Of a DNA stretch of 54,232 bases, positions 1 to 12,975 are shown in pieces. The stretch comes from Candidatus Parcubacteria bacterium (GTDB taxonomy: Bacteria > Patescibacteriota > Minisyncoccia > Phycocordibacterales > JAACPR01): the NCBI GenBank assembly GCA_041158505.1, contig JBEBBG010000019.1:1-54232 (forward strand), in the 5' to 3' direction. Each line of letters begins with the position of its first letter. Within the stretch, counting starts at the first letter, position 1. Made by a program: the position numbers and the translations under genes. Below the pieces are notes generated by a model. That model saw only the letters and a program-made list of their open reading frames with translations, was not told the DNA's origin and ran no database searches.

Positions 1-105
1 AACGGCGTCTTGGCAGATATCACATTCTGCAAGGGCAAAGAAACGGTGGAAGCAATTGCTTTCATGTTCGACGGTGACAACGGTGGCATGCTCTGCGTGC
101 CGTAA
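1..105 (+). CDS. 3' end of a hypothetical protein (partial)
   Basis: Frame open from base 1 (NGVLADITFCKGKETVEAIAFMFDGDNGGMLCVP*), followed by a terminator hairpin. Confidence 0.6.
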   Translation, partial: NGVLADITFCKGKETVEAIAFMFDGDNGGMLCVP

Positions 106-149
106 AGTAAAAATTAACCGCTTTTAGGATATTTGGCGCCCAAATCCTA

Positions 150-183
150 ACCTCAGACAACACGGTCTGAGGTTTTATTATTT
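150..183 (+). terminator. Rho-independent terminator
   Basis: AACCTCAGAC-aacacg-GTCTGAGGTT followed by a T-rich tract. Confidence 0.7.
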
Positions 184-307
184 ATGCAATTCAATTAACA
201 TTATGTGACAATCTTTTTCTCACTTTTTATTTATTTACAATACTCAATTTACTACTTTCAATACCGCTTAATATCTCATATTTCTCAAACACCCATTGTT
301 CTAGCTG

Positions 308-335
308 GTTCCAAGTTTCTAAAGGCATCTCCACA
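308..335 (+). repeat. boundary repeat copy 1 (subtype A)
   Basis: GTTCCA-AGTTTCTAAAGGCATC-TCCACA; lies within about 115 bp of similarity to 5535-5650. Confidence 0.8.
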
Positions 336-381
336 TTTCAAAGAATTTCAAATTATTTCGAGAAATTTATAATAATTTCAA

Positions 382-1113
382 TTAGTTTCTAAAATCTAAT
401 ACAAATGTTGTCTGAACAATATAATCAGAATCTTTTAAGATTTCTTTTGTTAGTTTTGCATCTTCTTCTGATAAGGAGTATTTTTTTATTAATATATTAG
501 ATAAACCTTTTACTTCCCTATCTTGAATAAGATCATATTTAATTTGAAGAGACTCAAATATATTTTTTAATTCATCTGCGTTGCTAAAATAAAATTCGTC
601 TCTTTTCAGAAGATCAATTTGGCCATCAAAAAGATCATCGGCAGATGTTTTTAATAAATCAGAGTTATTTTTTGAACCTTGATGTTGAATGATTGCAATA
701 CCTTTAGTTAATCTCTTAATATTACCAATTATTTTTTGCTGATTTTCTAAAGAATTCCAAGCTAAAACATACCTACACAGGGTTATGTCGAAGCACTTAT
801 CTTCTATAGGAATTTCAATCAGATTACTGTTAATCTTAACCTGAGCAATATTATTATTTAAATCATCCTCATTTATTTCAACAGCGGTTGTCTTAATTTT
901 ATAATCGTCCAACTTACTTATAAGGTCTTGTAAGAACTCTCCTCTGTGACTACCTAAATCTAAAACATTTATTTCTGAACCCGAATCAAACTCCTTTTTG
1001 ATTATTTTTGAAAAGAGATCTGCAGACTCCCCATAAACTGTCTTTATAGCCTGATCATCTGATAAACCATGAAATAGCCTGCCGGCAAATATTCCTTGTA
1101 TCTTTGATAACAT
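382..1113 (-). CDS. class I SAM-dependent methyltransferase
   Basis: VLDLGSHRG motif I, AVEIN, FDITLCRYVL; very AT-rich. Confidence 0.8.
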   Translation of the reverse strand: MLSKIQGIFAGRLFHGLSDDQAIKTVYGESADLFSKIIKKEFDSGSEINVLDLGSHRGEFLQDLISKLDDYKIKTTAVEINEDDLNNNIAQVKINSNLIEIPIEDKCFDITLCRYVLAWNSLENQQKIIGNIKRLTKGIAIIQHQGSKNNSDLLKTSADDLFDGQIDLLKRDEFYFSNADELKNIFESLQIKYDLIQDREVKGLSNILIKKYSLSEEDAKLTKEILKDSDYIVQTTFVLDFRN

Positions 1114-1162
1114 AAAAGAAAGAATATCATCTAAAGATTCCTAAATAAAGTCGCCATCAGAG

Positions 1163-1190
1163 GTGATAACTTCGTTCACTAATCTCCACA
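1163..1190 (+). repeat. boundary repeat copy 2 (subtype B)
   Basis: GTGATA-ACTTCGTTCACTAATC-TCCACA, identical to 1744-1771. Confidence 0.9.
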
Positions 1191-1250
1191 ATTTATAAAT
1201 ATTTCAATATATTTAAAATAATTTCAAACTATTAAGATATTACACTAATA

Positions 1251-1278
1251 TTGACTAATAATATATTTAATGTATAAT
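1251..1278 (+). promoter_or_regulatory. sigma70-type promoter
   Basis: TTGACT-N16-TATAAT with extended TG, upstream of the 1314 ORF. Confidence 0.65.
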
Positions 1279-1313
1279 TTTAAATGAATTCTGAACCCAC
1301 ACACTACAAATAA

Positions 1314-1673
1314 ATGAAGAAATTCTTGCTTATTCTCACCCTTGCCTGTGTCGCTCTTTCCGCGACAGCAAGCCCGCGATTTGATCGCAACAGAAACATG
1401 GCAGGCCAAGTAATTGACTTGGCCACAGGGAGAGGGGTTATTCCTCAGCATGCAGACAGTATCACCTCCGATGGTGCTCGGCTTTATTACAAAGTCGGGA
1501 TTGCAGAGGTGAAAGTGATTCGAGACTTCGAAGTCTACGAGATTGTCGGCACGAACTCTCAGAGTATCGCAGACTTCATCGGTTATCATGATTTCCTCGA
1601 AATCATCTCGGTACTCGCAAAAGAGGATGTTGCTGGTTTCATCATGGTGACTAAGAAAAAGTCAACACCCTGA
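1314..1673 (+). CDS. secreted hypothetical protein
   Basis: Signal peptide MKKFLLILTLACVALSATA; own promoter and downstream hairpin terminator (about 1693-1736). Confidence 0.75.
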   Translation: MKKFLLILTLACVALSATASPRFDRNRNMAGQVIDLATGRGVIPQHADSITSDGARLYYKVGIAEVKVIRDFEVYEIVGTNSQSIADFIGYHDFLEIISVLAKEDVAGFIMVTKKKSTP

Positions 1674-1743
1674 AATAACACGAACAACCGTCACCCCACC
1701 GAAAGACACCACGTCTTCGGATGGGGTGTTTTATTTCATACAA

Positions 1744-1771
1744 GTGATAACTTCGTTCACTAATCTCCACA
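1744..1771 (+). repeat. boundary repeat copy 3 (subtype B)
   Basis: Identical to 1163-1190; 3 bp from the stop codon of the phosphatase gene. Confidence 0.9.
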
Positions 1772-1774
1772 TCA

Positions 1775-2305
1775 CTAAACCTCAAAAGTATGTACCGACC
1801 CATTTGGAACATCAACATCTGATTTATTCTGAAACATTTTGTACATCAGCCTTATAATTCCCTTACTTGTTACAACTAATACCTTTTCGTATTCGAGCGT
1901 TTTTGCTTGGTGAATGAAAGTATGTATACGCTTTTCAACATCAATTACAGATTCGCCTCCATACTGGCGATAGTCATATGTTTGATTCTTATTATGAATT
2001 CGCAGCGTGTCACCATTTGGAATTTCAGACCACATCTTCCCTGCTAACGAACCAAAGTCCTGCTCGCGCAAACTATCATCAAAAATAATTTTCTTTTTCA
2101 ATGCATCAGCCACGATCTGAGAACTTGTTGCAACTCGTTTAAGCGACGAAGAAAAAATAATATCAAAATCTTTTGGTAGATCTGGAATACTATCCACCAT
2201 TTGTTTAACACCTTCTTCGTTTAAAGGTTCATCAACTGTTACGCCCTGTATTCTGTGTTGCTTATTAAAATCAGTTTCACCATGTCGTATAAAATAGAAG
2301 ATCAT
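1775..2305 (-). CDS. histidine phosphatase (phosphoglycerate mutase family)
   Basis: FIRHGET, SSSLKR, LREQDFG, GGES; start placed at MIFYF, 7 nt after TATAAT; second His replaced (VVTSKG). Confidence 0.85.
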   Translation of the reverse strand: MIFYFIRHGETDFNKQHRIQGVTVDEPLNEEGVKQMVDSIPDLPKDFDIIFSSSLKRVATSSQIVADALKKKIIFDDSLREQDFGSLAGKMWSEIPNGDTLRIHNKNQTYDYRQYGGESVIDVEKRIHTFIHQAKTLEYEKVLVVTSKGIIRLMYKMFQNKSDVDVPNGSVHTFEV

Positions 2306-2344
2306 ACATTGCATTATACAGCTTTTTAGTTTTTACAGATTGTG

Positions 2345-2372
2345 GTTCTAACATCCTCTACATTGCTCCACC
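2345..2372 (+). repeat. boundary repeat copy 4 (subtype C)
   Basis: GTTCTA-ACATCCTCTACATTGC-TCCACC(A). Confidence 0.9.
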
Positions 2373-2469
2373 ATCACTTGACTAAATACATTTTATATTA
2401 TATCGTCAACGATGCATCGTTCTTTGAAATTCGTTCAGAGAACACACTCAAACCCAAACCCGTTGAACT

Positions 2470-2844
2470 ATGAAACTACTCTCCCTGATTGCACTTGTCT
2501 GTGCAATCGTCATTCCGAACACTATCTTCGGCGAAGACATCAACCCGGATTCAAAACAACCTTCGCTGGTTGTGAACAAGGATCTCGGGTTCGTCTACCT
2601 GCAAAAATCAGTGCCTCCTGCAGACGTCCTGGCCCGCAAAGAAGAGGAGGTTTTGAAGGAAACCGCTCGCCAACTCTTCGAAAAGTGGACCGAACACAAG
2701 GGTCAGAAGATCTTGATCACGGGTTCTGAACCGAAGTGGATTGTGCACATGGAAAACAAGAAAGGATACGTTATCCTAACCGTTGCCTTTGCGCGCATTT
2801 CACACGCGATCGATTCCACGATAATCGCTCAAACAATCGACTGA
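2470..2844 (+). CDS. secreted hypothetical protein
   Basis: Signal peptide MKLLSLIALVCAIVIP; TTGACT at 2378 upstream; hairpin plus T tract downstream. Confidence 0.75.
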   Translation: MKLLSLIALVCAIVIPNTIFGEDINPDSKQPSLVVNKDLGFVYLQKSVPPADVLARKEEEVLKETARQLFEKWTEHKGQKILITGSEPKWIVHMENKKGYVILTVAFARISHAIDSTIIAQTID

Positions 2845-2954
2845 CCACCCTTCCCCTCCCGAATCAAAACAAAAGCCTTGTGGCTCGTTTGAATCGCGGG
2901 GCTTTTTCTTTTTAAACAACTTGCTACAAGACACCTTCTCCAACACGGAACGTA

Positions 2955-2982
2955 GTTCTAACATCCTCTACAGTACTCCACA
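2955..2982 (+). repeat. boundary repeat copy 5 (subtype C)
   Basis: GTTCTA-ACATCCTCTACAGTAC-TCCACA, 3 bp from the TrmB stop codon. Confidence 0.9.
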
Positions 2983-2985
2983 TAC

Positions 2986-3789
2986 TTAAACCGTCTTCAA
3001 AAATCCCTCCACATCCTTTGGATTCGGTTTGATTTCTTTTGAAACACTCCAGACCAAATCAAACTGAGCGCGAAGCAGCTGCGAAAAATCCTTACTACTA
3101 ATAATAAAACCAAACCCCTCCTTTCGAGATGAAACAACAGCCACCTTGTCTGCATAATTCCAATACCCCATGTCCCAGGTCATTTGTTTGGGCGCTACAC
3201 GAATTTCTCGTAAAAACTTTTTTCCACTGCCAAGTGCTGGTTGATCTTTGAAACTCACCGCATGTGACTTGGGCCAAATTGCATTGATGTGAATTCCACG
3301 TCGGATTCGCTCTCGGTTATGATTTTCAAAATACTCTTTTCCAAGAAAGGCAACCATCTCGCTAATCGGAAAGAGTGCTTGCGTCTCAATGTTTTCATAC
3401 CACAGCAAATCATTGAGTACCTGGCGCACACCCTCCACACCAGAATAAAACTTAATCTTCGGCTCAAACGACTCCCCACCAAAGTTCATGTGTGGCAAAA
3501 AGGATTCGACAGACGCTTTTTCTTTTTGGAGTTTTGCAATTTTTTCAGCAAGGAGACGTGGAATATTTTTAGGATCATCAATATAAAATACTTTTTTGTT
3601 GTCACGAATCTGCTCAAGCACCAACGTGTGCTGGATGAGGATTTTAAGATTGTCGTACACCGATGCTCGTGGCGTATTTAGGTTTTCTGCAATTTGCCGA
3701 GCGGTCGCACCAGGGTGTTCAACGAGATACGCATAAATCCGCTTTGTAGCTGTAGCAAACCCAAGTTCGTTAAAAAATGAATCAAACAT
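2986..3789 (-). CDS. TrmB-family transcriptional regulator
   Basis: N-terminal wHTH (TARQIAENLNTPRASVYDNLKIL), KIKFYSGVEG, YADKVAVVS C-terminal domain. Confidence 0.85.
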   Translation of the reverse strand: MFDSFFNELGFATATKRIYAYLVEHPGATARQIAENLNTPRASVYDNLKILIQHTLVLEQIRDNKKVFYIDDPKNIPRLLAEKIAKLQKEKASVESFLPHMNFGGESFEPKIKFYSGVEGVRQVLNDLLWYENIETQALFPISEMVAFLGKEYFENHNRERIRRGIHINAIWPKSHAVSFKDQPALGSGKKFLREIRVAPKQMTWDMGYWNYADKVAVVSSRKEGFGFIISSKDFSQLLRAQFDLVWSVSKEIKPNPKDVEGFLKTV

Positions 3790-3805
3790 GATGATATAGG
3801 TTATT

Positions 3806-3823
3806 TGTCGATTTTCGACGACA
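3806..3823. promoter_or_regulatory. palindrome, possible TrmB operator
   Basis: TGTCG-N8-CGACA (inner GTCGA-TTT-TCGAC) between divergent genes. Confidence 0.4.
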
Positions 3824-3884
3824 GTTTTACATTAAAACAATTACCTGCTACTGTCAACGAGAACTCAACCAAGCCCTTTACCCT

Positions 3885-4694
3885 ATGCAAATGAAACAAC
3901 TACTTCTGTTTGTTGTCTGTGCCTGCACATTCGCCACGCCTGCCCTAGCTCAACTGGAGATTGATGAGCAACCCTCATACCTCCCCGCCGACGTGAGTAT
4001 CAGTACAACTTACAACAGTCAGTACATCGCTTCTCGTATCAACCGCGTCATAACACCTGACCCGACCATCTGGACCCAAGCATCAATCAAATGGGAATCT
4101 GGCTTCTACTTCTCGTGGCTCGAAATTCGAGGCATTGATGATGTGTCACCAACACTCCCACCATTTGAAGAGACCCTGGTCACACTTGGCCAGTCATGGA
4201 AGTTGGATACCTTCGATTTCAAACTCGAAGCAACCATCATCAACCTCGACCCTGTTGCCAGGTGGGCAGCGCATGACCGGTATTCGTTCGACGCGTACAT
4301 TTCAAAGACCTTTACGTTCAAGAAAAACGGCAAGCACAGCATCACACCAGAACTTCGGATGTTGTGGTTCTGTGACACACAAGAACTTGATGGTGGTGTT
4401 CCCATCATCATGCCGAGCGTCGCACATAAATGGCAACAACCATTTGAATACGAGCACCTCACCATCCAAAGCAAGCTCGGGCTTTGCTGGGACGGTGGTC
4501 TCTATCGAAACAATACTGAAGGCGTTTTCCTGCAAACCGACATCGGACTACAATGGAATCTGGCGAAGTTCCTCGGAACACCTGCCACACTTACCCTACC
4601 TGGGTACAAATCCCTCATCCCCATCACACATGGAAATGACGGACGCGACGGTGTACACCACGTCTTCTATGGAGGAATCAGGTTTGATTTCTAG
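3885..4694 (+). CDS. secreted beta-barrel-like protein (TorF/porin-like)
   Basis: Signal peptide ending ALA, alternating amphipathic strands, ESGFYFSW, terminal YGGIRFDF. Confidence 0.6.
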   Translation: MQMKQLLLFVVCACTFATPALAQLEIDEQPSYLPADVSISTTYNSQYIASRINRVITPDPTIWTQASIKWESGFYFSWLEIRGIDDVSPTLPPFEETLVTLGQSWKLDTFDFKLEATIINLDPVARWAAHDRYSFDAYISKTFTFKKNGKHSITPELRMLWFCDTQELDGGVPIIMPSVAHKWQQPFEYEHLTIQSKLGLCWDGGLYRNNTEGVFLQTDIGLQWNLAKFLGTPATLTLPGYKSLIPITHGNDGRDGVHHVFYGGIRFDF

Positions 4695-4797
4695 ATTGTC
4701 CGTGATGGAATTGCTGCGTAAGGCTTGTTTAGGGTCCATCCCCTAGCAAGTCTTTTTCTTTCCTGCCTAGACATACTGACCACCAGAGCTCATCACA

Positions 4798-4825
4798 GTT
4801 CTAACATCCTCTACCGTGCTCCACA
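4798..4825 (+). repeat. boundary repeat copy 6 (subtype C)
   Basis: GTTCTA-ACATCCTCTACCGTGC-TCCACA, followed by inverted repeat AAAATAACCTTG/CAAGGTTATTTT (4831-4859). Confidence 0.9.
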
Positions 4826-4881
4826 CTCACAAAATAACCTTGTTTTTCAAGGTTATTTTTGTTTTTAAGGTCTTATTTTAC

Positions 4882-4910
4882 TTGACTTTTTGTGTAAAAT
4901 ATGCTAATAT
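4882..4910 (+). promoter_or_regulatory. sigma70-type promoter
   Basis: TTGACT-N17-TAATAT. Confidence 0.65.
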
Positions 4911-4959
4911 ATAAAGGAAATCAGCATAGTTTTGCTGATAAAACAAAAACGATCTTTTT

Positions 4960-5385
4960 ATGAAAAAACTTTGCACAATCCTTACAATCGTGTTCGCAAT
5001 CGTCGTCGGAATCGGATTCTTCTGGTCATCGCACAAGCGACACCAGGATGCAGTCGAGGATCAAGTATCCTCTTTGGTGCCGTGGCACCAACAAGAAGTA
5101 CGAGACTACGCCGAGATGACCTCAACGCTCAAGGTCGGCGACCTCGTTCTTGTAATCGACAACAAAGTCGACAAAAATGAACGCCACCTCGCGGTGACCA
5201 AGGTCGATGAATTCCCAGGGAACCGTCGCATCCACCTCGAAGGTAGGTACGACACCCCGGAAACCATGTTCCTTTGGTCTGGGCTTGAGGAAGGACTGAA
5301 AGTGAATAACACCTATTCGTTCCATCCAATCTATCAAGACAGCCCTGGCTACACCCAGCTTGCGACCTGGTTCTGGATCCAATAA
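4960..5385 (+). CDS. membrane-anchored hypothetical protein
   Basis: N-terminal TM helix; downstream hairpins and terminator (about 5392-5468). Confidence 0.75.
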   Translation: MKKLCTILTIVFAIVVGIGFFWSSHKRHQDAVEDQVSSLVPWHQQEVRDYAEMTSTLKVGDLVLVIDNKVDKNERHLAVTKVDEFPGNRRIHLEGRYDTPETMFLWSGLEEGLKVNNTYSFHPIYQDSPGYTQLATWFWIQ

Positions 5386-5601
5386 AACTCAAAGGTAGGC
5401 CGACTACCTTATCCGAAAGGATGAATCGTCGGAATTGCCGCAAGAGAAATCCTGCGGCTTTTTTCTTTCCTAATCTTAACTGGTTGTATTAACTACTTGT
5501 GTCTCTTTTTACTTAACAAATCATTTCAAAACAACACTCATTTCCCTATTTTCTAAAGCCAGTATTGATTCGTAACTTTCAAACACCCAGCTTTCTAGCT
5601 G

Positions 5602-5629
5602 GTTCCATGTTTTCAATGGTATGTCCACA
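5602..5629 (+). repeat. boundary repeat copy 7 (subtype A)
   Basis: GTTCCA-TGTTTTCAATGGTATG-TCCACA; flanks similar to copy 1. Confidence 0.8.
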
Positions 5630-5701
5630 TTTCAAAGTATTTCGAAATTACCACTTTTATAGAACTATAACGACAACGCATGCGCTGCTATACTTACCTT
5701 A

Positions 5702-6085
5702 ATGCTAAAAGTAAAAACTACAATAAAACAAAGCCCGCTGCATGGATTAGGCTTGTTCGCAGACGAGGATATAAAAGAAGGTACTGTCATCTGGGAATTT
5801 GAACCTGGATTAGATATTTCAATTACAAAAGATGAGTATGATAGCTTATCTCAAATGCAAAAAGATTTTTTTGATCATTACGGGTACTGGAGCGACGAAT
5901 TACATTTGTATATTTGTGCAGCAGATGGTTGGCGTTTTACAAATCACTCCACAAATCCAAACACTGCGACAATACATGCTGCCCCATCTAACGAAGGTCA
6001 GGATATTGCCATACGAGACATTAAAGCTAGCGAAGAACTTTTATTTGATTACCGTTCATTTGGAGAAAACCCTGAACAAATATAG
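5702..6085 (+). CDS. SET-domain protein
   Basis: GLGLFA, RFTNHSTNPN, RDIKASEELLFDY. Confidence 0.9.
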   Translation: MLKVKTTIKQSPLHGLGLFADEDIKEGTVIWEFEPGLDISITKDEYDSLSQMQKDFFDHYGYWSDELHLYICAADGWRFTNHSTNPNTATIHAAPSNEGQDIAIRDIKASEELLFDYRSFGENPEQI

Positions 6086-6091
6086 ATCACA

Positions 6092-6118
6092 GTTCTACCA
6101 TTCGCTGCGTTGTCCACA
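6092..6118 (+). repeat. boundary repeat copy 8 (degenerate, 27 bp)
   Basis: GTTCTA-N15-TCCACA, preceded by ATCACA as in copy 6; marks the right end of the array. Confidence 0.65.
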
Positions 6119-6147
6119 TCCTTGTATAAAAATCTGAGCGAGTGTCT

Positions 6148-6969
6148 TTATTGCTCAACCCTCCGTCCCACAAACCCAAAAATATTTTTATACCCATTTT
6201 GGCTAAACAGTACTGGGAAAAAATCGTACTCAGCAGGCACGGCTTCACCTGCCGCATTGCGATACACGGTCTGCCCTTTCTGCACGAGCTGTAAATTAGC
6301 AATCTGAGGATCAAGCTGATCACCTTCATCCTTTGGAAATTCCTCCTCAACGATAAACACTGCAGGTGCATGTCCAGTTTCAGAGACGACAGCGGCATCT
6401 GTATCAGTAAGCATTCCCTGCGCGTGCAATATTTTCTTGATATCCGTAATAATTTTTTGCGTAGCTGCAGGATCAGCATCATTGCCATACTCAAATGCAA
6501 TGCCCGCTTTTGCAGATGATAGAAGCACGTTCCCTTCTGTTACTCTCATAACCAGCGCAACAGATGGCTGCACACTATCGATAAGTCGCTGTGTCTGCTG
6601 ATCAAGATGATCGACAATCACCGCATCTCGAAGTGAACTTTCAGTAGAGTGAATATCAATAAACACATCTACTTGTGCTGCAATCGCAGACAGATAGAAC
6701 GCAAGCTGCTCCTCATAGCTTCCTTGTTCATTTCCGACACCAACACGGTTAATGTCATGGTTAATGTATCGCACACCCTTCTCAAGTGCTTGCTCATTTG
6801 CAATGTTTGTAAGCAGTGTCCCCTGCTCAGGCACAACGTCTGCAAATACTTGTGTCACCGCAAGACCAACCCGTTCATCACCATGTGTGCACCCATTGAT
6901 AAATACAATCGGCCTTTGTGCTGTTGCAATACTATCTAGTAGTTTTGTGTATTTTTCTTTGGGATTCAT
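6148..6969 (-). CDS. succinylglutamate desuccinylase/aspartoacylase family (M14-like)
   Basis: THGDE, DINR, IDIHS, FEYG motifs. Confidence 0.85.
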   Translation of the reverse strand: MNPKEKYTKLLDSIATAQRPIVFINGCTHGDERVGLAVTQVFADVVPEQGTLLTNIANEQALEKGVRYINHDINRVGVGNEQGSYEEQLAFYLSAIAAQVDVFIDIHSTESSLRDAVIVDHLDQQTQRLIDSVQPSVALVMRVTEGNVLLSSAKAGIAFEYGNDADPAATQKIITDIKKILHAQGMLTDTDAAVVSETGHAPAVFIVEEEFPKDEGDQLDPQIANLQLVQKGQTVYRNAAGEAVPAEYDFFPVLFSQNGYKNIFGFVGRRVEQ

Positions 6970-7001
6970 TGTCTACAAATTTTTAAAGAAAAAGGCATAC
7001 A

Positions 7002-7787
7002 TTATGCCTGGACTGTTTTGAGGTGCGCGTTTCTACACCGTTCGTAACACATCCTCCCCCAGAGCGCGACCTGCGCCGGATCATCAGTGTTATCAAACAT
7101 CCGAAACTCAATCGTACCATGGGCCGAAATGCGAATCAGGTGCCAACAACGACGAGGGTCATCAACAAATCCATGTTCGCAGTAATACTGGTGCATGTGT
7201 GCACTGTCCGTGTATGGAGCAGGACGAAAGTTGGGTGCCATGGTTTGGTAGATTGACATCCTTTCACCCTGCGTCTTGTTCCCAGCCTCAACAAGTGTGT
7301 CGAGATCTTGGATAACATCGTTGTACACGTGCAACGCCGTTTCCATATCAGGCATGCCGATATGGAAATGCGTACCAGCTACGCGACATGCTGCAAGCAA
7401 CACATCCTGCGGCAACTGAGCAGCAATCTGTTGATAGCGACCCGTTGGATCAGGGTAGACATCAAGCGGCATCGTTGCTGGAGCAACCGTTTCATACCTG
7501 ACGCCAAGACCGTTCATTGAAAGCTTTTGTTGCAGCATCACCTGCTGCTCCTCAACTTTCTGTTCCATGGAATCAATCAAGGTAGGGCCAACGCGACTCT
7601 CCAACTGACACGCGGACAGTTCGTAGCCAAACGCGTCATCTTTGAGCAACGAGAGAGCGTATTGTGACAAGGGAACAATTTCATCGTCCGCATTGACCAC
7701 AAATGCTTCTCGTTCGCACCCAACGTACCACGCATACTGCGGTTTAAACGCAAACCTATTACGGAACAATTCGAGTGACGTATTCAT
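7002..7787 (-). CDS. carboxylate-amine ligase (GCS2/YbdK-like)
   Basis: VGCERE, ELSACQLE, GTHFHIG, TIEFRMFD. Confidence 0.8.
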   Translation of the reverse strand: MNTSLELFRNRFAFKPQYAWYVGCEREAFVVNADDEIVPLSQYALSLLKDDAFGYELSACQLESRVGPTLIDSMEQKVEEQQVMLQQKLSMNGLGVRYETVAPATMPLDVYPDPTGRYQQIAAQLPQDVLLAACRVAGTHFHIGMPDMETALHVYNDVIQDLDTLVEAGNKTQGERMSIYQTMAPNFRPAPYTDSAHMHQYYCEHGFVDDPRRCWHLIRISAHGTIEFRMFDNTDDPAQVALWGRMCYERCRNAHLKTVQA

Positions 7788-7791
7788 GTTT

Positions 7792-8010
7792 TAAAAAGAA
7801 CGAAAAAGACTTCTTGTGTCTCATGGCAACAAACGAGAAACAAGAAGTCTTTAGGTTTCTTGACTCGTACATTACCGAAGTAACAGATATCAATTACCCC
7901 ATGATAACGGAGGGTGTGCCGGGTTCTCACTAATGCAAGAACCACCTTGCCATTTGGCGATCTAGCCCCAACCCTGCATACGCAGGAACTAAATCAAAGG
8001 TTTTAACTCT
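7792..8010 (-). promoter_or_regulatory. structured 5' leader with terminator (candidate riboswitch/attenuator)
   Basis: Upstream TTGACG-N17-TAATTT, several hairpins, then AAAGACTTCTTG...CAAGAAGTCTTT plus U-tract about 20 nt before the ATG. Confidence 0.55.
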
Positions 8011-8104
8011 AGGTTGAAATTACCAGAATTGAAACAAGACGTCAATTTATTAAAGGTAATCTATTGACTCCCAGAATCTTTTTATGCAATATGACCTTAA
8101 ATCA

Positions 8105-8175
8105 GGGGGTATAATTCAATGGTAGAATGACGGTCTCCAAAACCGTATATGTGGGTTCGATTCCCACTATCCCCG
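8105..8175 (+). tRNA. tRNA-Trp(CCA)
   Basis: Acceptor GGGGGTA/TATCCCC, anticodon arm ACGGT-CTCCAAA-ACCGT, T-loop GGTTCGATTCC; CCA end not encoded. Confidence 0.95.
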
Positions 8176-8271
8176 CGTTCTTCAACGTAATCCATCCTAA
8201 AAAGAAAAAGCCCGGTACGCAGCACGCGCCGGGTATATTTATTTCATCAAACTAGACCTAGAGCTGAAGGC

Positions 8272-9426
8272 TTAGATTTTTTGCACGACCAATCCGACAT
8301 ACGCACCGTGCTCGTCTCCAGACTCGCACAGCTGCATATCCAGATTAAGCAACGGCTCGATAAACCCTTCCCGAAAGAGTTCCCGAGGCATTAGGGATGT
8401 CACGAAGGGAAAGGTGTTCAAGCGTTGCAATGCAAAGCGCCGTTCCACCATGTCCCGAATTTCTTGGACTGAATACATGCGGGCGTGCACCGGGATTGTT
8501 CCCCGGACACCTGCCAAATCGACCTCGAGGGTATTCATAATCGGATTAAAGATTGCCGCAATTGAGTTTTGCCACGGCAATATCGACCGATGTACGAGTG
8601 CGTCCGCGTTATAAAAAGAGAGGTATGCGTAACCGCCCCTAGTAAGCACGCGTCGCACTTCACTCAGCAGACTTTGGATGTCGACGATATCTCCACATGT
8701 GCCATTATTCATGACAACGAAAGAGACCGTTCCATCCTCAAGTGGAATTCCCTGCTCAAGGTCGCGCTGAACGAACTGAATCCTGTGCCGTTGATTGGAA
8801 TTGACTTTGCCCTGTGCAACAGCGACCATCGCGGGAGAAATGTCATAGCCCACAAGAGAGCGGAATCCAGCCTTGTGATGAAAGATCATTCGCCCCGTAG
8901 CGGTACCCAGATCGACAAAAGTGCCGCGATGATCGAGCGATTCAATCGTCTCGCTAATGATTCGATTCTCAATCTGGTAGGTAAAACGCGTAGCAGGGCA
9001 GCCATCCTGGTGCGTATCGTAGGTTTCGGCAACAGACTCCGTGAGTCTGAGCAAGTTTCTTCGGAGGGCTTCTGGCGATCGATCACCAGCATTGTTACCC
9101 TCCTGACTACTTGTTGCCTCGTCTCGCAGCATTGTTTGGTGTTTCACGCCGGCGTTGATAACCGTGTGCAACAGTGCTTGCGCAAGGTATGGATCAATAC
9201 CAACTTCAGCAGCAACCTGACCAATATGCTGTAACCGCGACTGCTCCCGGCCGAGTACGACGATAGGATCTGTCCCTTTCGTGTCAACAACCAAGGTAGA
9301 CAGGTCAATGCGACGCTTCACCAGACGAACAAGATGTTCATCAAGGACACCGAGTCGCTCTCCAATACCTTTGAGCCACCGGTCTTTCTGTTCTGCGCTT
9401 ACCGCGCTAGGAGGATTTGTGTTCAT
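8272..9426 (-). CDS. AroQ chorismate-mutase-like domain fused to a class I SAM methyltransferase
   Basis: LDEHLVRLVKRR..K..RE..KHQ N-terminal domain; VDLGTATG, GYDIS, EVRRVL. Confidence 0.7.
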   Translation of the reverse strand: MNTNPPSAVSAEQKDRWLKGIGERLGVLDEHLVRLVKRRIDLSTLVVDTKGTDPIVVLGREQSRLQHIGQVAAEVGIDPYLAQALLHTVINAGVKHQTMLRDEATSSQEGNNAGDRSPEALRRNLLRLTESVAETYDTHQDGCPATRFTYQIENRIISETIESLDHRGTFVDLGTATGRMIFHHKAGFRSLVGYDISPAMVAVAQGKVNSNQRHRIQFVQRDLEQGIPLEDGTVSFVVMNNGTCGDIVDIQSLLSEVRRVLTRGGYAYLSFYNADALVHRSILPWQNSIAAIFNPIMNTLEVDLAGVRGTIPVHARMYSVQEIRDMVERRFALQRLNTFPFVTSLMPRELFREGFIEPLLNLDMQLCESGDEHGAYVGLVVQKI

Positions 9427-9477
9427 GATTAATTGATAAGTAACGTTTACAAAGCATATTACATACCTAAAAAGAAA

Positions 9478-9508
9478 AAACCAGCCGGCGACGAACGCTG
9501 GCTGGTTT
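9478..9508 (-). terminator. terminator after trpS
   Basis: AAACCAGCCGGCG/CGCTGGCTGGTTT hairpin with adjacent A-run. Confidence 0.6.
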
Positions 9509-9529
9509 GTAAAATCCGGTACCGTGGCC

Positions 9530-10525
9530 TCAGTAAAGGGTCAGACCAAATCGATCCTGAACGAGAGCAAGGGTCTCTGCATACCTAGCACGGGCACGTT
9601 GACCGCCAGATTTCAAAACATCAATGACGTAATCATCCTGATTTGCCAATCGTGCGCGCGCCTGCTGAAACGGTTCGATGATTTCCGCAAGCGTATCGAG
9701 CATCCGCTCTTTACACTCTCGGCAACCAATACGCGCCTCCATACACTGGCGAGCAATCGTCCGATCATCCCTTTCCCCCGGCGTGATGATTTCATGCATC
9801 GGGTAGATAGACATGCAGCCATTGAATGGATCACCAGGATCAGAGAGACGCACGCGCTTCTCGTCGGTAACTCCTCGTTTCATGTAGCGCTCGCGGATCT
9901 CGTCCATGGGACTGTTGATGTCGACAGCATTGTCTGCCTCCGACTTCCCCATTTTTTTGCCGTCGAGGCCAGGCACCTTGACCATGTTCTCAACCATTTG
10001 GGGAACCACAAGGGTTTCACCAAAACGGTTATTGAAACGTTTCGCAAGGTCCCTGGCGAGTTCAACATTTGGCACCTGATCTGCACCCACAGGCACAAGC
10101 GTTGCTTGTGCACCGAGGATATCAGCAGCCATCAACACTGGGTACGAGAGAAGCCCCATTGTCTGACGCTGAGGATGTTTTGCCATCAGGTCTTTGATGG
10201 TTGGCAACTGCGCGACTTGGTTGTACGACTGCAGCATACCGAGCAGCAATGCGAGCTGTGAGATTTCGGGCACACTCGACTGCGCAAAGATAATCGACTG
10301 CTCAGGATCAAGCCCTGCAGCCAAATAGTCTTTTGCAATTTCAACGAGATTCCCCCGAAGTTCCTCGGGGTTATCGAGCGTCGTGAGTGTGTGGAGATCA
10401 GCGATAAAGTACAGACTCGTACAATCATCACTTGCGTACTGCACGAACTGCCTGACGGCACCGAGCAGATTACCAACATGCAACTTTCCAGTCGCACGAA
10501 TTCCAGAGAGAATTGTGGGTTTCAT
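9530..10525 (-). CDS. trpS: tryptophan--tRNA ligase
   Basis: SGIRATG, HVGN, YPVLMAADI, VPVGADQ, KMGKS. Confidence 0.95.
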   Translation of the reverse strand: MKPTILSGIRATGKLHVGNLLGAVRQFVQYASDDCTSLYFIADLHTLTTLDNPEELRGNLVEIAKDYLAAGLDPEQSIIFAQSSVPEISQLALLLGMLQSYNQVAQLPTIKDLMAKHPQRQTMGLLSYPVLMAADILGAQATLVPVGADQVPNVELARDLAKRFNNRFGETLVVPQMVENMVKVPGLDGKKMGKSEADNAVDINSPMDEIRERYMKRGVTDEKRVRLSDPGDPFNGCMSIYPMHEIITPGERDDRTIARQCMEARIGCRECKERMLDTLAEIIEPFQQARARLANQDDYVIDVLKSGGQRARARYAETLALVQDRFGLTLY

Positions 10526-12420: not shown

Positions 12421-12975
12421 ATGTTCTCCACACTCACACCCCCGGAACGGCGCTCTGCATCAGCAGAAGCGATCACTAAAACCCTCACTGGTAACCCTCG
12501 TGCTTTGGATCGGTACCGATTCATGCAGCCGTCCGAAGCAAACGGAACGCTGGTGAAACACCGAATCACGGTGCCCACACTCGCGACGGTCCTCATGCGC
12601 GAAGGAGATATCATTCCCTTCCACGTGCATGGCCGGCGCGACAAGCGGTACGTCTTTAGCGGCATCGGAAGGTTCAGCGTCTTCCTCTACCGCCCCAGAG
12701 GCGGCAAGAGACAAGCCCTTATCCGCGAGGTGATCCAAACCGGACCAGAAGACAGATTGGCGACCGTGGAGGTGCCGCGTGGCACCTTCCATGCCGTCGT
12801 CTGTCACTACGTCAATCGAGCAAATGCCGATTTTTCGGAAACAGATGGCCGGGCAACATTTGACGTTGTTGCAACCGGAAACGACCCGACGGACATTCAC
12901 TGGGATCCGAATCTCGAGCAACTGCTCGCACACGTTTCGTTCAATCCCAAGATTGATTCCCTGCCGTGGGCCTGA
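12421..12975 (+). CDS. cupin-fold protein
   Basis: PFHVH and VEVPRGTFHAV cupin motifs. Confidence 0.6.
   Translation: MFSTLTPPERRSASAEAITKTLTGNPRALDRYRFMQPSEANGTLVKHRITVPTLATVLMREGDIIPFHVHGRRDKRYVFSGIGRFSVFLYRPRGGKRQALIREVIQTGPEDRLATVEVPRGTFHAVVCHYVNRANADFSETDGRATFDVVATGNDPTDIHWDPNLEQLLAHVSFNPKIDSLPWA

Follow-up and report, generated by a model that had tools for sequence, protein, structure and literature searches.

Small cassettes stacked beside the tmRNA gene of a Parcubacteria bacterium are probably joined at sites that hold severed tails of large serine recombinases

The left end of the window, our term for the whole 54,232-nt stretch of Candidatus Parcubacteria bacterium DNA that was analysed, raises the question of why repeats lying between genes should each read, from a TGG on the minus strand, as the same short protein tail with the pattern W-x-x-V-x-[DE]-V-[RI]-T. 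A preliminary description had listed five such peptides, in repeat copies 2 to 6, and all five were recovered exactly on the minus strand, at 1188, 1769, 2370, 2980 and 4823 (Table 1). The pattern TGGN6GTN4GANGTNANNAC had 5 matches in the window, each of them on the minus strand, whereas 100 shuffles gave 0.00 on average, and across the 19 contigs of the genome it matched these five copies only. They belong to an array of eight directly oriented sites (window 227-6131) that also includes A1 (289-335), A7 (5583-5640) and the degenerate D8 (6086-6131), which the earlier list did not have. The sites delimit cassettes with one or two genes, in units of 0.5-1.8 kb. Our reading, to which we give a probability of roughly 0.7, is that the repeats are the att joints of at least eight small cassettes stacked at the 3' end of the tmRNA gene (ssrA), and that the motif is the severed tail of a large serine recombinase (LSR).

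Table 1. Sites and cassettes of the array, in window coordinates.
Feature	Position	Strand	Details
Right part of cassette nearest tmRNA gene	1-328		Contig X2 record 9
Site A1	227-345	-	Core CTCCACA (plus 329-335), A-type arm, 35-codon frame 334-227 starting at core
Cassette gene, SAM-dependent methyltransferase, 243 aa, AT-rich	382-1113	-	Pfam Methyltransf_31/11; GC 0.25-0.33
Site B2 (copy 2)	1141-1190	-	Core 1184-1190, arm 1163-1183, putative orphan tail WRLVNEVITSDGDFI, then stop
Cassette gene, 119 aa, no family, then hairpin	1314-1673	+	ORF list, Pfam
Site B3 (copy 3)	1731-1771	-	Core 1765-1771, putative orphan tail WRLVNEVITCMK, then stop
Cassette gene, histidine phosphatase family, 179 aa	1775-2314	-	Pfam His_Phos_1, E 5e-33
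Site C4 (copy 4)	2326-2372	-	Core 2366-2372, arm GTAGAGGATGTTAGAAC, putative orphan tail WSNVEDVRTTICKN, then stop
Cassette gene, 124 aa, no family	2470-2844	+	
Site C5 (copy 5)	2924-2982	-	Core 2976-2982, putative orphan tail WSTVEDVRTTFRVGEGVL, then stop
Two-gene cassette	2986-4694		TrmB-like HTH regulator 2986-3789 minus; 269-aa no-family protein 3885-4694 plus
Site C6 (copy 6)	4767-4825	-	Core 4819-4825, putative orphan tail WSTVEDVRTVMSSGGQYV, then stop
Cassette gene, 141 aa, no family	4960-5385	+	
Site A7	5521-5640	-	Core GTCCACA 5623-5629, A-type arm, 35-codon frame 5628-5521
Cassette gene, SET-domain protein, 127 aa	5702-6085	+	Pfam SET, E 3.5e-15
Site D8, degenerate C-like	6086-6131	-	1-nt length difference breaks frame

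Sites B2 and B3 were identical over 28 nt, and C4, C5 and C6 had an exact 17-mer in common. Within types B and C, 26-28 nt were identical, and the flanks were unrelated from approximately 26-29 nt past the TGG. LSR attachment sites typically combine a short common core, from a few bp to approximately 10 bp, with a conserved half-site of approximately 20-25 bp, and the sites here have both. The A-type sites, A1 and A7, have a conserved open frame of 35 codons, in a frame other than that of the LSR reading, and homologues in the arrays of related genomes. None of the 11 inverted repeats found in window 1-8000 lay at any site, and no clear inverted symmetry was apparent between the left and right arms of the window's sites. 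In the rebuilt tRNA-His attP of a related genome (G048), CTTCTACGA and TCGTAGAGG could be seen by eye on either side of the core.

The tmRNA ends ...GCCATCTCCACA, and the site core, 6-11 nt long, matches the antisense of this 3' end exactly and holds the TGG that is read as W. It was CATCTCCACA in A1, ATCTCCACA in the B sites, CTCCAC in the C sites and TCCACA in A7 and D8; all eight direct sites carry the core ...TCCAC(A). The W and its neighbouring bases derive from antisense tmRNA 3'-end sequence, a point absent from the preliminary description, and ssrA is therefore the target. Contigs from the likely source sample placed the tmRNA 3' end on the plus strand, approximately 1.0 kb beyond the left end of the window. 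One of them, X2 record 9, ran from the T-arm and acceptor end of the tmRNA through 95 nt like window 4819-4913 and another 925 nt to window 1-3208. A second, variant contig had the same tmRNA 3' end joined at window base 1763, in site B3, and a form without the methyltransferase unit and different cassette orders were also seen among the contigs. Since these sequencing data are contigs, not reads, of the probable source sample, the variant joints may stem from different strains and not from recombination. In six relatives (G003, G029, G013, G006, G130 and G129), sites of this kind directly adjoin the tmRNA 3' end, and the Rfam tmRNA genes there (scores of 89-138 bits) are found downstream of, and antisense to, the sites. 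The smpB gene of the window's genome is the final gene on contig C13.

Site arms recurred between genomes and cargo did not. The B arm was identical at 26/26 positions in two of the three copies of G003, which is of the same genus; arms were exactly conserved within types and between the two genomes, with unrelated flanks. The 3.5 kb beside the array (window 7000-10500) matched G003 at tRNA genes only. No cargo was shared with 12 related loci, and together with the variant junctions in the sample this shows cargo varying between strains. Site D8 is the one farthest from the tmRNA gene.

Beside the core, an arm of approximately 20 nt encodes V-x-[DE]-V-[RI]-T, and in relatives it begins a conserved tail of approximately 30 codons. 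Three LSRs of 527-556 aa (P0005, P0006 and P0008), with Resolvase and Recombinase domains (PF00239, PF07508) and a zinc ribbon in P0005 and P0006, end in ...GAVVE[DE]VRTIFE.RNDATIYIP...; their bodies differ, and the tail of approximately 30 aa is common to all three. The LSR ORFs of this bacterial order routinely cross the crossover into antisense tRNA or tmRNA, and antisense T-arm codons ([DE]SN, DLN etc.) end 18 of the 30 inspected. In G048 the LSR stops at ...RWGG within antisense tRNA-His, an orphan tail WGAVVEDVRT... lies approximately 10 kb upstream, and the two sites of the pair have only TGGGGTG (7 nt) in common. A relative of P0005 likewise has its C-terminus, ...FRGG, in antisense tRNA-His. 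The LSRs of G405 and G308 read into the tmRNA gene as ...MWRWGESNPR, in the W frame of sites B and C, and a 20-nt repeat of the G308 element lies 10.5 kb upstream. The preliminary description had proposed that each site supplies the last codons of a gene overlapping its own att site, for example an LSR. This was borne out in relatives, whose LSRs carry the C-terminal tail in ORFs that cross their own att, but an attP inside an integrase ORF was found for no gene in the window.

The LSR elements at ssrA in G308 and G130 have an arm that differs from those of the window's sites, AATCGGTCA..., and no LSR was found to carry a B-, C- or A-type tail, whether joined to it or left at the opposite end of an LSR element integrated at ssrA. 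The C5 frame and an A-type frame, used as queries in word-index searches, returned no longer protein, and the best 150 of 257 profile matches were all of 26-205 aa. The LSRs of relatives share the core (G405, G308) or the tail family (P0005, P0006, P0008 and G048); no case with both together was found.

Protein-level constraint, suspected from the start because types B and C differ at many bases and keep the same residues, was evident in a larger set. Pairwise differences over the six codons V-x-[DE]-V-[RI]-T averaged 0.175, 0.103 and 0.469 at codon positions 1, 2 and 3 in 17 short sites taken from 11 genomes, and the next 12 nt were near random (0.62-0.72). The third-position excess was also present in 16 long tails (0.246, 0.183 and 0.441). 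Synonymous sites of E-D-V-R-T were nearly fixed, as would be expected if the DNA doubles as a binding arm.

These observations suggest how a recombinase tail could come to lie between cassettes. Read along the minus strand, a site opens with the end of the cassette beside it, which shows weak conservation (...TTTnnnnnTG), continues with the core, (CA)TCTCCACA, antisense of the tmRNA 3' end with TGG as W, and closes with the arm of approximately 20 nt, which would belong to the next cassette. In mobile elements using such sites, the LSR gene would lie at the element end and read through the crossover, so that the arm doubles as the first tail codons (V-E-D-V-R-T and variants). Integration would cut the LSR ORF at the core, after which the recombinase would end in antisense tRNA or tmRNA and the severed tail would be stranded at the element's far end. 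The window's copies would be orphan tails of this sort, with conservation that stops where the DNA arm stops, on cassettes without a recombinase. An LSR acting in trans presumably built this array, in which the distal unit (D8) would be the oldest and the unit beside ssrA the newest. Some sites may still be active: exact arm conservation and the variant joints of the sample argue that at least some are usable.

The recombinase is missing from the array itself. No Resolvase or Recombinase domain was found on the array contig (C19), and Pfam and PHROGs scans of 10 ORFs (8 cassette, 2 flanking) returned no integration module. The sole LSR of the genome is on another contig (C7, 31418-33109) and has a different target, and none of the 8 family-f1 genomes with arrays had an LSR on the array contig. 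Nor does any gene read into any of the eight sites; the open frames upstream are 1-29 codons long, and an AstE/AspA-like gene upstream of D8 has its stop codon before the site. The preliminary description had considered a shufflon-like swapping of C-termini. In such an arrangement a resident gene, an LSR or another, would enter the first site and exchange its C-terminus by recombination among sites. The tails are indeed protein-constrained as a family, and LSR C-termini do change with the junction that they face. However, with no gene entering the copies and no recombinase in the array, the recombinase idea was right in kind and the swapping of a resident gene's tail is unsupported here; all sites being direct repeats, recombination would moreover delete rather than invert. 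We consider this arrangement extremely improbable. Scars of islands whose integrase was lost, also proposed earlier, come close to our own reading. As wholly inert scars, each unit would be a decayed LSR-bearing ssrA island that had lost its recombinase and most of its cargo, its sites dead. The missing recombinase and the degenerate, out-of-frame D8 are in keeping with decay, the window's tails stop straight after R-T where G129 and G085 retain long ones, and in the protein library an orphan tail as a rule has no LSR nearby, the best 150 of 257 profile matches there being all short. Yet separate loss of the recombinase from at least eight units, and from all arrays in 8 genomes, would be unparsimonious, the arms are exact amid unrelated flanks, and the alternative junctions of the contigs fall precisely at sites. 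We regard wholly inert scars as unlikely.

The sites could instead serve a different enzyme, for example the tyrosine recombinase of the genome or an unrecognised enzyme of an integron-like platform, with the likeness to LSR tails secondary. Tyrosine integrases classically target tmRNA genes (PMC4383910), arrays occur in genomes without an LSR match (G011, G024 and G019 have sites), and the conserved A-type frame of 35 codons is not that of the LSR reading. Against this, the only Phage_integrase match in the window's genome is on contig C15, far from the array, and a target identity of 6-11 nt is typical of serine, not tyrosine, integrases (Bxz2, for one, is quoted with a 4-bp core; PMC2884959). 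The sites, moreover, have no inverted repeat and nothing like an attC hairpin, and the B and C arms are LSR tail codons in the very frame by which LSRs cross the tmRNA core. A different enzyme therefore seems to us quite improbable. The reading of the sites as att joints with severed LSR tails can be extended, tentatively, to an integron-like, LSR-driven capture platform at the tmRNA gene in this order of small-genome bacteria. Cassettes of one or two genes, each with no more than a 26-nt arm and the core, would be integrated and excised in trans by visiting LSR elements, and the tail, encoded across attP and exchanged on integration, might act as a switch of activity, stability or direction, making these enzymes a serine counterpart of the archaeal "suicidal" integrases.

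If the cassettes were captured in this way, the locus would be a concrete route of gene flow into very small, recombination-poor genomes, with short cassettes stacking at an essential RNA gene and a site of approximately 35 bp as the sole requirement. It also points to a natural design, an LSR with attP inside its own 3' end, so that the protein before integration differs from the protein after it. Should the tail control activity or direction, it would solve the directionality problem in a new way; to our knowledge, that task otherwise falls to separate RDF proteins. Many natural attP/attB pairs, with tRNA and tmRNA ends as their targets, would also become available from the family. In annotation, the hundreds of short "hypothetical proteins" that end ...VEDVRT.FE..ND..IYIP would be orphan recombinase tails that mark island borders.

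Several known systems resemble the array in part. Like integrons, it has promoter-poor one-gene cassettes, short sites and one chromosomal platform, with sites conserved and cargo variable; unlike them, it has no IntI tyrosine recombinase and no attI, its platform is the tmRNA 3' end, its sites are not imperfect palindromes and its genes lie in both orientations. SCCmec elements form composite islands that the CcrAB serine recombinases build at rlmH/orfX. They share with the array serine recombinases, tandem units of which some have no recombinase, and repeats copied from the final bases of a single-copy essential gene, but in SCCmec the repeats correspond to the last codons of the target gene rather than those of the recombinase, and each unit spans tens of kb. 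In the integration-dependent immunity of mycobacteriophage BPs, attP reportedly lies in the 3' part of the repressor gene, and integration is said to alter the C-terminus of the product. That case differs from ours in involving a repressor gene, a tyrosine integrase and no cassette arrays; the tail here may have a regulatory role.

The archaeal SSV-type "suicidal" integrases have attP in the integrase ORF, with att translated as protein, so that integration severs the gene and leaves one piece at each element end (available part of PMC7253208). There, according to the same text, a tyrosine recombinase is split into two inactive halves, whereas the bacterial LSR here would exchange its last 10-30 codons, and its catalytic and DNA-binding domains are left whole. 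The known system that comes closest is that of the Dehalococcoides ssrA islands. In the available part of their description (PMC3146451), these are likewise tandem units downstream of a tmRNA gene present in one copy. Short direct repeats of the 3' end of ssrA delimit them, their cargo is strain-specific and some units have no integration module; the latter are discussed as cis-mobilisable elements and in terms of accretion. DsiB, a CcrB-like serine recombinase of approximately 540 aa (CcrB is mentioned in that paper), lies on the reverse strand at the ssrA-facing edge. A recombinase ORF crossing att is not described in that part of the source. The units here are smaller, at 0.5-1.8 kb with one or two genes and an integration module in none of the eight, and the repeat shared with ssrA is 6-11 nt, compared to 20 bp there (PMC3146451). 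The host here is a bacterium with a 0.72-Mb genome, and the conserved part of the repeat, unlike that in the available account of Dehalococcoides, would be element DNA that encodes the recombinase's own C-terminal tail.

Translation exactly reproduced the five minus-strand peptides of the preliminary description. A degenerate DNA pattern for W-x-x-V-x-[DE]-V-[RI]-T had 5 matches in the window, compared to none expected (100 shuffles), and was absent elsewhere in the host genome, G000 (723 kb, 19 contigs). The observation is real and non-random. Sites B2 and B3, named by type and order in the array, were identical over 28 nt, and a 17-mer was common to sites C4 to C6. Three additional members of the series and the cargo of the cassettes are listed in the table. 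All 8 sites were direct repeats. The units between them were 0.5-1.8 kb with 1 or 2 genes apiece, and GC content differed unevenly from unit to unit. Site D8 was the most decayed, had a 1-nt length change, and was at the greatest distance from the tmRNA gene, ssrA; its decay and distal place fit successive insertions at ssrA that left the oldest unit farthest out.

Additional sites and cassette cargo of the array in the window
Feature	Position	Remark
A-type site A1	289-335	additional member of series
A-type site A7	5583-5640	additional member of series
Degenerate site D8	6086-6131	additional member of series
Cassette cargo		methyltransferase
Cassette cargo		histidine phosphatase
Cassette cargo		TrmB-like regulator and 269-aa partner
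Cassette cargo		SET-domain protein
Cassette cargo		three small proteins without family

A promoter-like sequence (TTGACT...TAATAT) was present at 4826-4913, within the 95 nt after site C6. In X2 record 9, a contig from the likely source sample that bridges the tmRNA 3' end and the window start, a 93% identical copy of these 95 nt immediately followed that 3' end; judging from this recurrence, cassette starts may have a common promoter module. The partial cassette nearest ssrA (116-318) was 78% identical over 205 nt to positions 973-1173 of locus L112 (G026:C40) from another genus; this similarity included two hairpins and was the only cargo-side likeness found. Far outside the array, 13 nt at the start of an ORF (12426-12438, CTCCACACTCACA) matched the C6 core and right flank, possibly by chance.

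The preliminary description had linked the motif to a large serine recombinase (LSR), and the link was right. At 0-1 mismatch, the C-type 17-mer also occurred across further families of this order, where it starts a conserved piece of ~30 codons, (L/W)GAVVEDVRT.FE..ND..IYIP..., that ends at a stop. Only matches at 0-1 mismatch were informative; at 2 mismatches in 61 relatives, matches were at background level (12 outside G000 and 10 in the control). A search of 401 genomes with the complete degenerate motif gave 7 matches outside G000 and 6 in the control, with related-looking matches only in G130, G129, G085, and G379. The frame 5' of the ~30-codon piece was neither conserved nor open, and a stop codon was immediately before the piece in 4 of 17 loci. 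Mean pairwise differences at codon positions 1, 2, and 3 of the piece were 0.246, 0.183, and 0.441 (16 loci, 24 codons); this variation is codon-like. Neither Rfam nor ARAGORN detected an RNA at the pieces. A search for longer proteins identified three LSRs of 527-556 aa with Resolvase and Recombinase domains, 2 of them with a zinc ribbon. Their bodies differed, and the last ~30 residues of each were the conserved piece, which is thus their C-terminal tail. One of the three, P0006, had no match among viral contigs. A profile of the piece searched against 1.84 billion representative proteins yielded 257 matches. The best 150 of these were 26-205 aa each with the piece C-terminal, and since all 150 were short, the orphan state of the tail, severed from its gene body, is the usual one. 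Word-index protein searches, which are weak evidence here, gave no match to longer proteins with the C5 frame or the A-type frame.

The codon-position bias proposed earlier as a check was borne out, with a third-position excess in short sites and long tails. When 17 short sites (11 genomes) were compared, codon positions 1, 2, and 3 of the stretch for V-x-[DE]-V-[RI]-T (six codons) differed by 0.175, 0.103, and 0.469, respectively, and the following 12 nt were unconstrained. The synonymous positions of E-D-V-R-T in long tails were nearly fixed (0.12, 0.34, 0.12, 0, 0), and later third positions differed at 0.33-0.79. Our reading of these sequence comparisons is that ~20 nt may be doubly constrained, as the starting codons of the tail and as the element-side DNA arm beside the crossover. 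Such a constraint would explain why the window copies were exactly conserved to ...AGAAC or ...ATCAC and divergent beyond. A-type sites (227-334 and 5521-5628, minus strand, and loci L110-L124) also had a conserved frame of ~35 codons, V[DE]I....WNQ[LI]E.WVF..., with its start precisely at the core (GTGGA); it is not the frame of the LSR W. Of 19 matches to it, 18 were genuine instances, with a third-position excess (0.318, 0.283, 0.461).

Of 32 other family genomes, 10 had A-type homologues; a contig typically contained several, spaced 0.5-2.6 kb apart. G003, of the same genus as the host, had B-type sites too, with arms 26/26 identical to those of the window in 2 of 3 copies. Its series ended at a tmRNA gene (128 bits) that adjoins smpB and runs antisense to the sites as read. 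The same arrangement at an antisense tmRNA was seen in G029, G013, G006, and G130, and the C-type long tail of G129 was likewise at an antisense tmRNA gene. The tmRNA 3' terminus was ...GCCATCTCCACA, and its antisense, TGTGGAGATGGC, was the left part of the sites in the window; the W is therefore TGG opposite CCA inside ...CUCCAC. The tmRNA gene of G000 was absent from the assembly, with only tRNA-like partial matches by Rfam and no match by blastn with the G003 tmRNA. The terminal gene of contig C13 of G000 was smpB, and a tmRNA 5'-end-like stretch followed its stop to the contig end (C13:13975-14079), with the remainder of the gene not in the assembly. This remainder is probably missing because the repeated sites broke the assembly. 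The 4252-nt contig X2 record 9 ran from the T-arm and acceptor end of the tmRNA through 95 nt like window 4819-4913 and then another 925 bases to window 1-3208, which places the beginning of the array at ssrA, ~1 kb beyond the left end of the window. In G405 and G308, ssrA is an LSR target: the LSR ORF ran ...MWRWGESNPR straight into the tmRNA gene and shared its frame with the W of the B and C sites; the G308 element had a 20-nt repeat 10.5 kb upstream. Both of these elements also had the LOOT RNA motif (Rfam RF03000, 70-73 bits; L126:8832-8948 and L127:12514-12629).

LSRs were present in 258 of 401 genomes of the order. Among 30 inspected LSR ORFs, 18 ended in antisense tRNA T-arm codons (e.g., ...ESNPR, ...QDSNLRP), and 3 more ended in ...WGG and a stop that, in their DNA, was inside antisense tRNA-His. 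An orphan tail in G048 was ~10 kb upstream of the LSR end on the same strand, and TGGGGTG was the only sequence common to the two junctions. Given conservative site-specific recombination and a host tRNA right of the LSR junction, the tail right of the distal junction must be element DNA, and the LSR ORF therefore crosses attP. Integration swaps the LSR tail for host codons and leaves it stranded at the opposite element end. Both states exist within one lineage, as shown by a relative of P0005 (itself tail-bearing) that ended in ...FRGG and a stop in antisense tRNA-His. In G020, a 341-aa reverse-transcriptase-like ORF converged on an orphan LSR tail and overlapped it (L006:143-1168).

Evidence on mobility of the array pointed both ways. 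Arms were conserved between G000 and G003, though the 3.5 kb beside the array (7000-10500) matched G003 at tRNA genes only, and DNA synteny against four same-genus genomes was also limited to tRNA genes. Sites matched across 12 related loci, with cargo common to none. Contigs probably from the source sample had the histidine-phosphatase unit immediately next to the tmRNA end, omitted the methyltransferase unit (156 to 1159), altered the cassette order (5463 to 1161, 5553 to 282), or linked both ends of the methyltransferase unit via a B-type site (1179 to 330); as the runs are contigs, these joints may reflect nothing more than other strains. In contrast, a recombinase was absent from the array and was on the array contig in 0 of 8 family genomes, and no LSR with a B-, C-, or A-type tail was found by word-index and profile protein searches (best 150 of 257 profile matches). 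Tail swapping on a resident gene, as suggested in the preliminary description, was not supported at this locus.

The only LSR of G000 (L053, C7:31000-33109, 563 aa) read ...LPRQDSNLRPIDY into an antisense tRNA 3' half; it was rejected as the array enzyme, having another tRNA target and no repeat in common with the array contig. The 5' half of that tRNA was ~250 nt further on, and the tRNA, not called by ARAGORN, may be intron-bearing or interrupted. Integron attC and Xer/dif sites were ruled out, with neither a palindrome nor IntI. A tRNA- or tmRNA-like nature of the repeats, or of a conserved 70-100 nt element in relatives, was also rejected; ARAGORN, and Rfam at permissive thresholds, detected none at the sites, and variation was codon-like rather than covariation-like. 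Contig C16 had a sequence resembling the A1 core downstream of tRNA-His; it falls in a promoter region and was judged coincidental.

In our classification, the locus is a cassette array at ssrA that lacks a recombinase and has orphan LSR tails as its joints. We found no paper on LSR genes crossing their own attP or on such cassette arrays in this group, a result for main texts that is not proof of absence. The closest described system is found in Dehalococcoides, whose tandem islands at ssrA have 20-bp ssrA repeats as boundaries and encode a CcrB-like serine recombinase, DsiB; some units are without the module and were discussed as cis-mobilisable elements (PMC3146451). The ORF-spanning attP resembles that of the SSV-type "suicidal" tyrosine integrases, which are described as so far restricted to archaea (PMC7253208). 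It also resembles the integration-dependent immunity of phage BPs.
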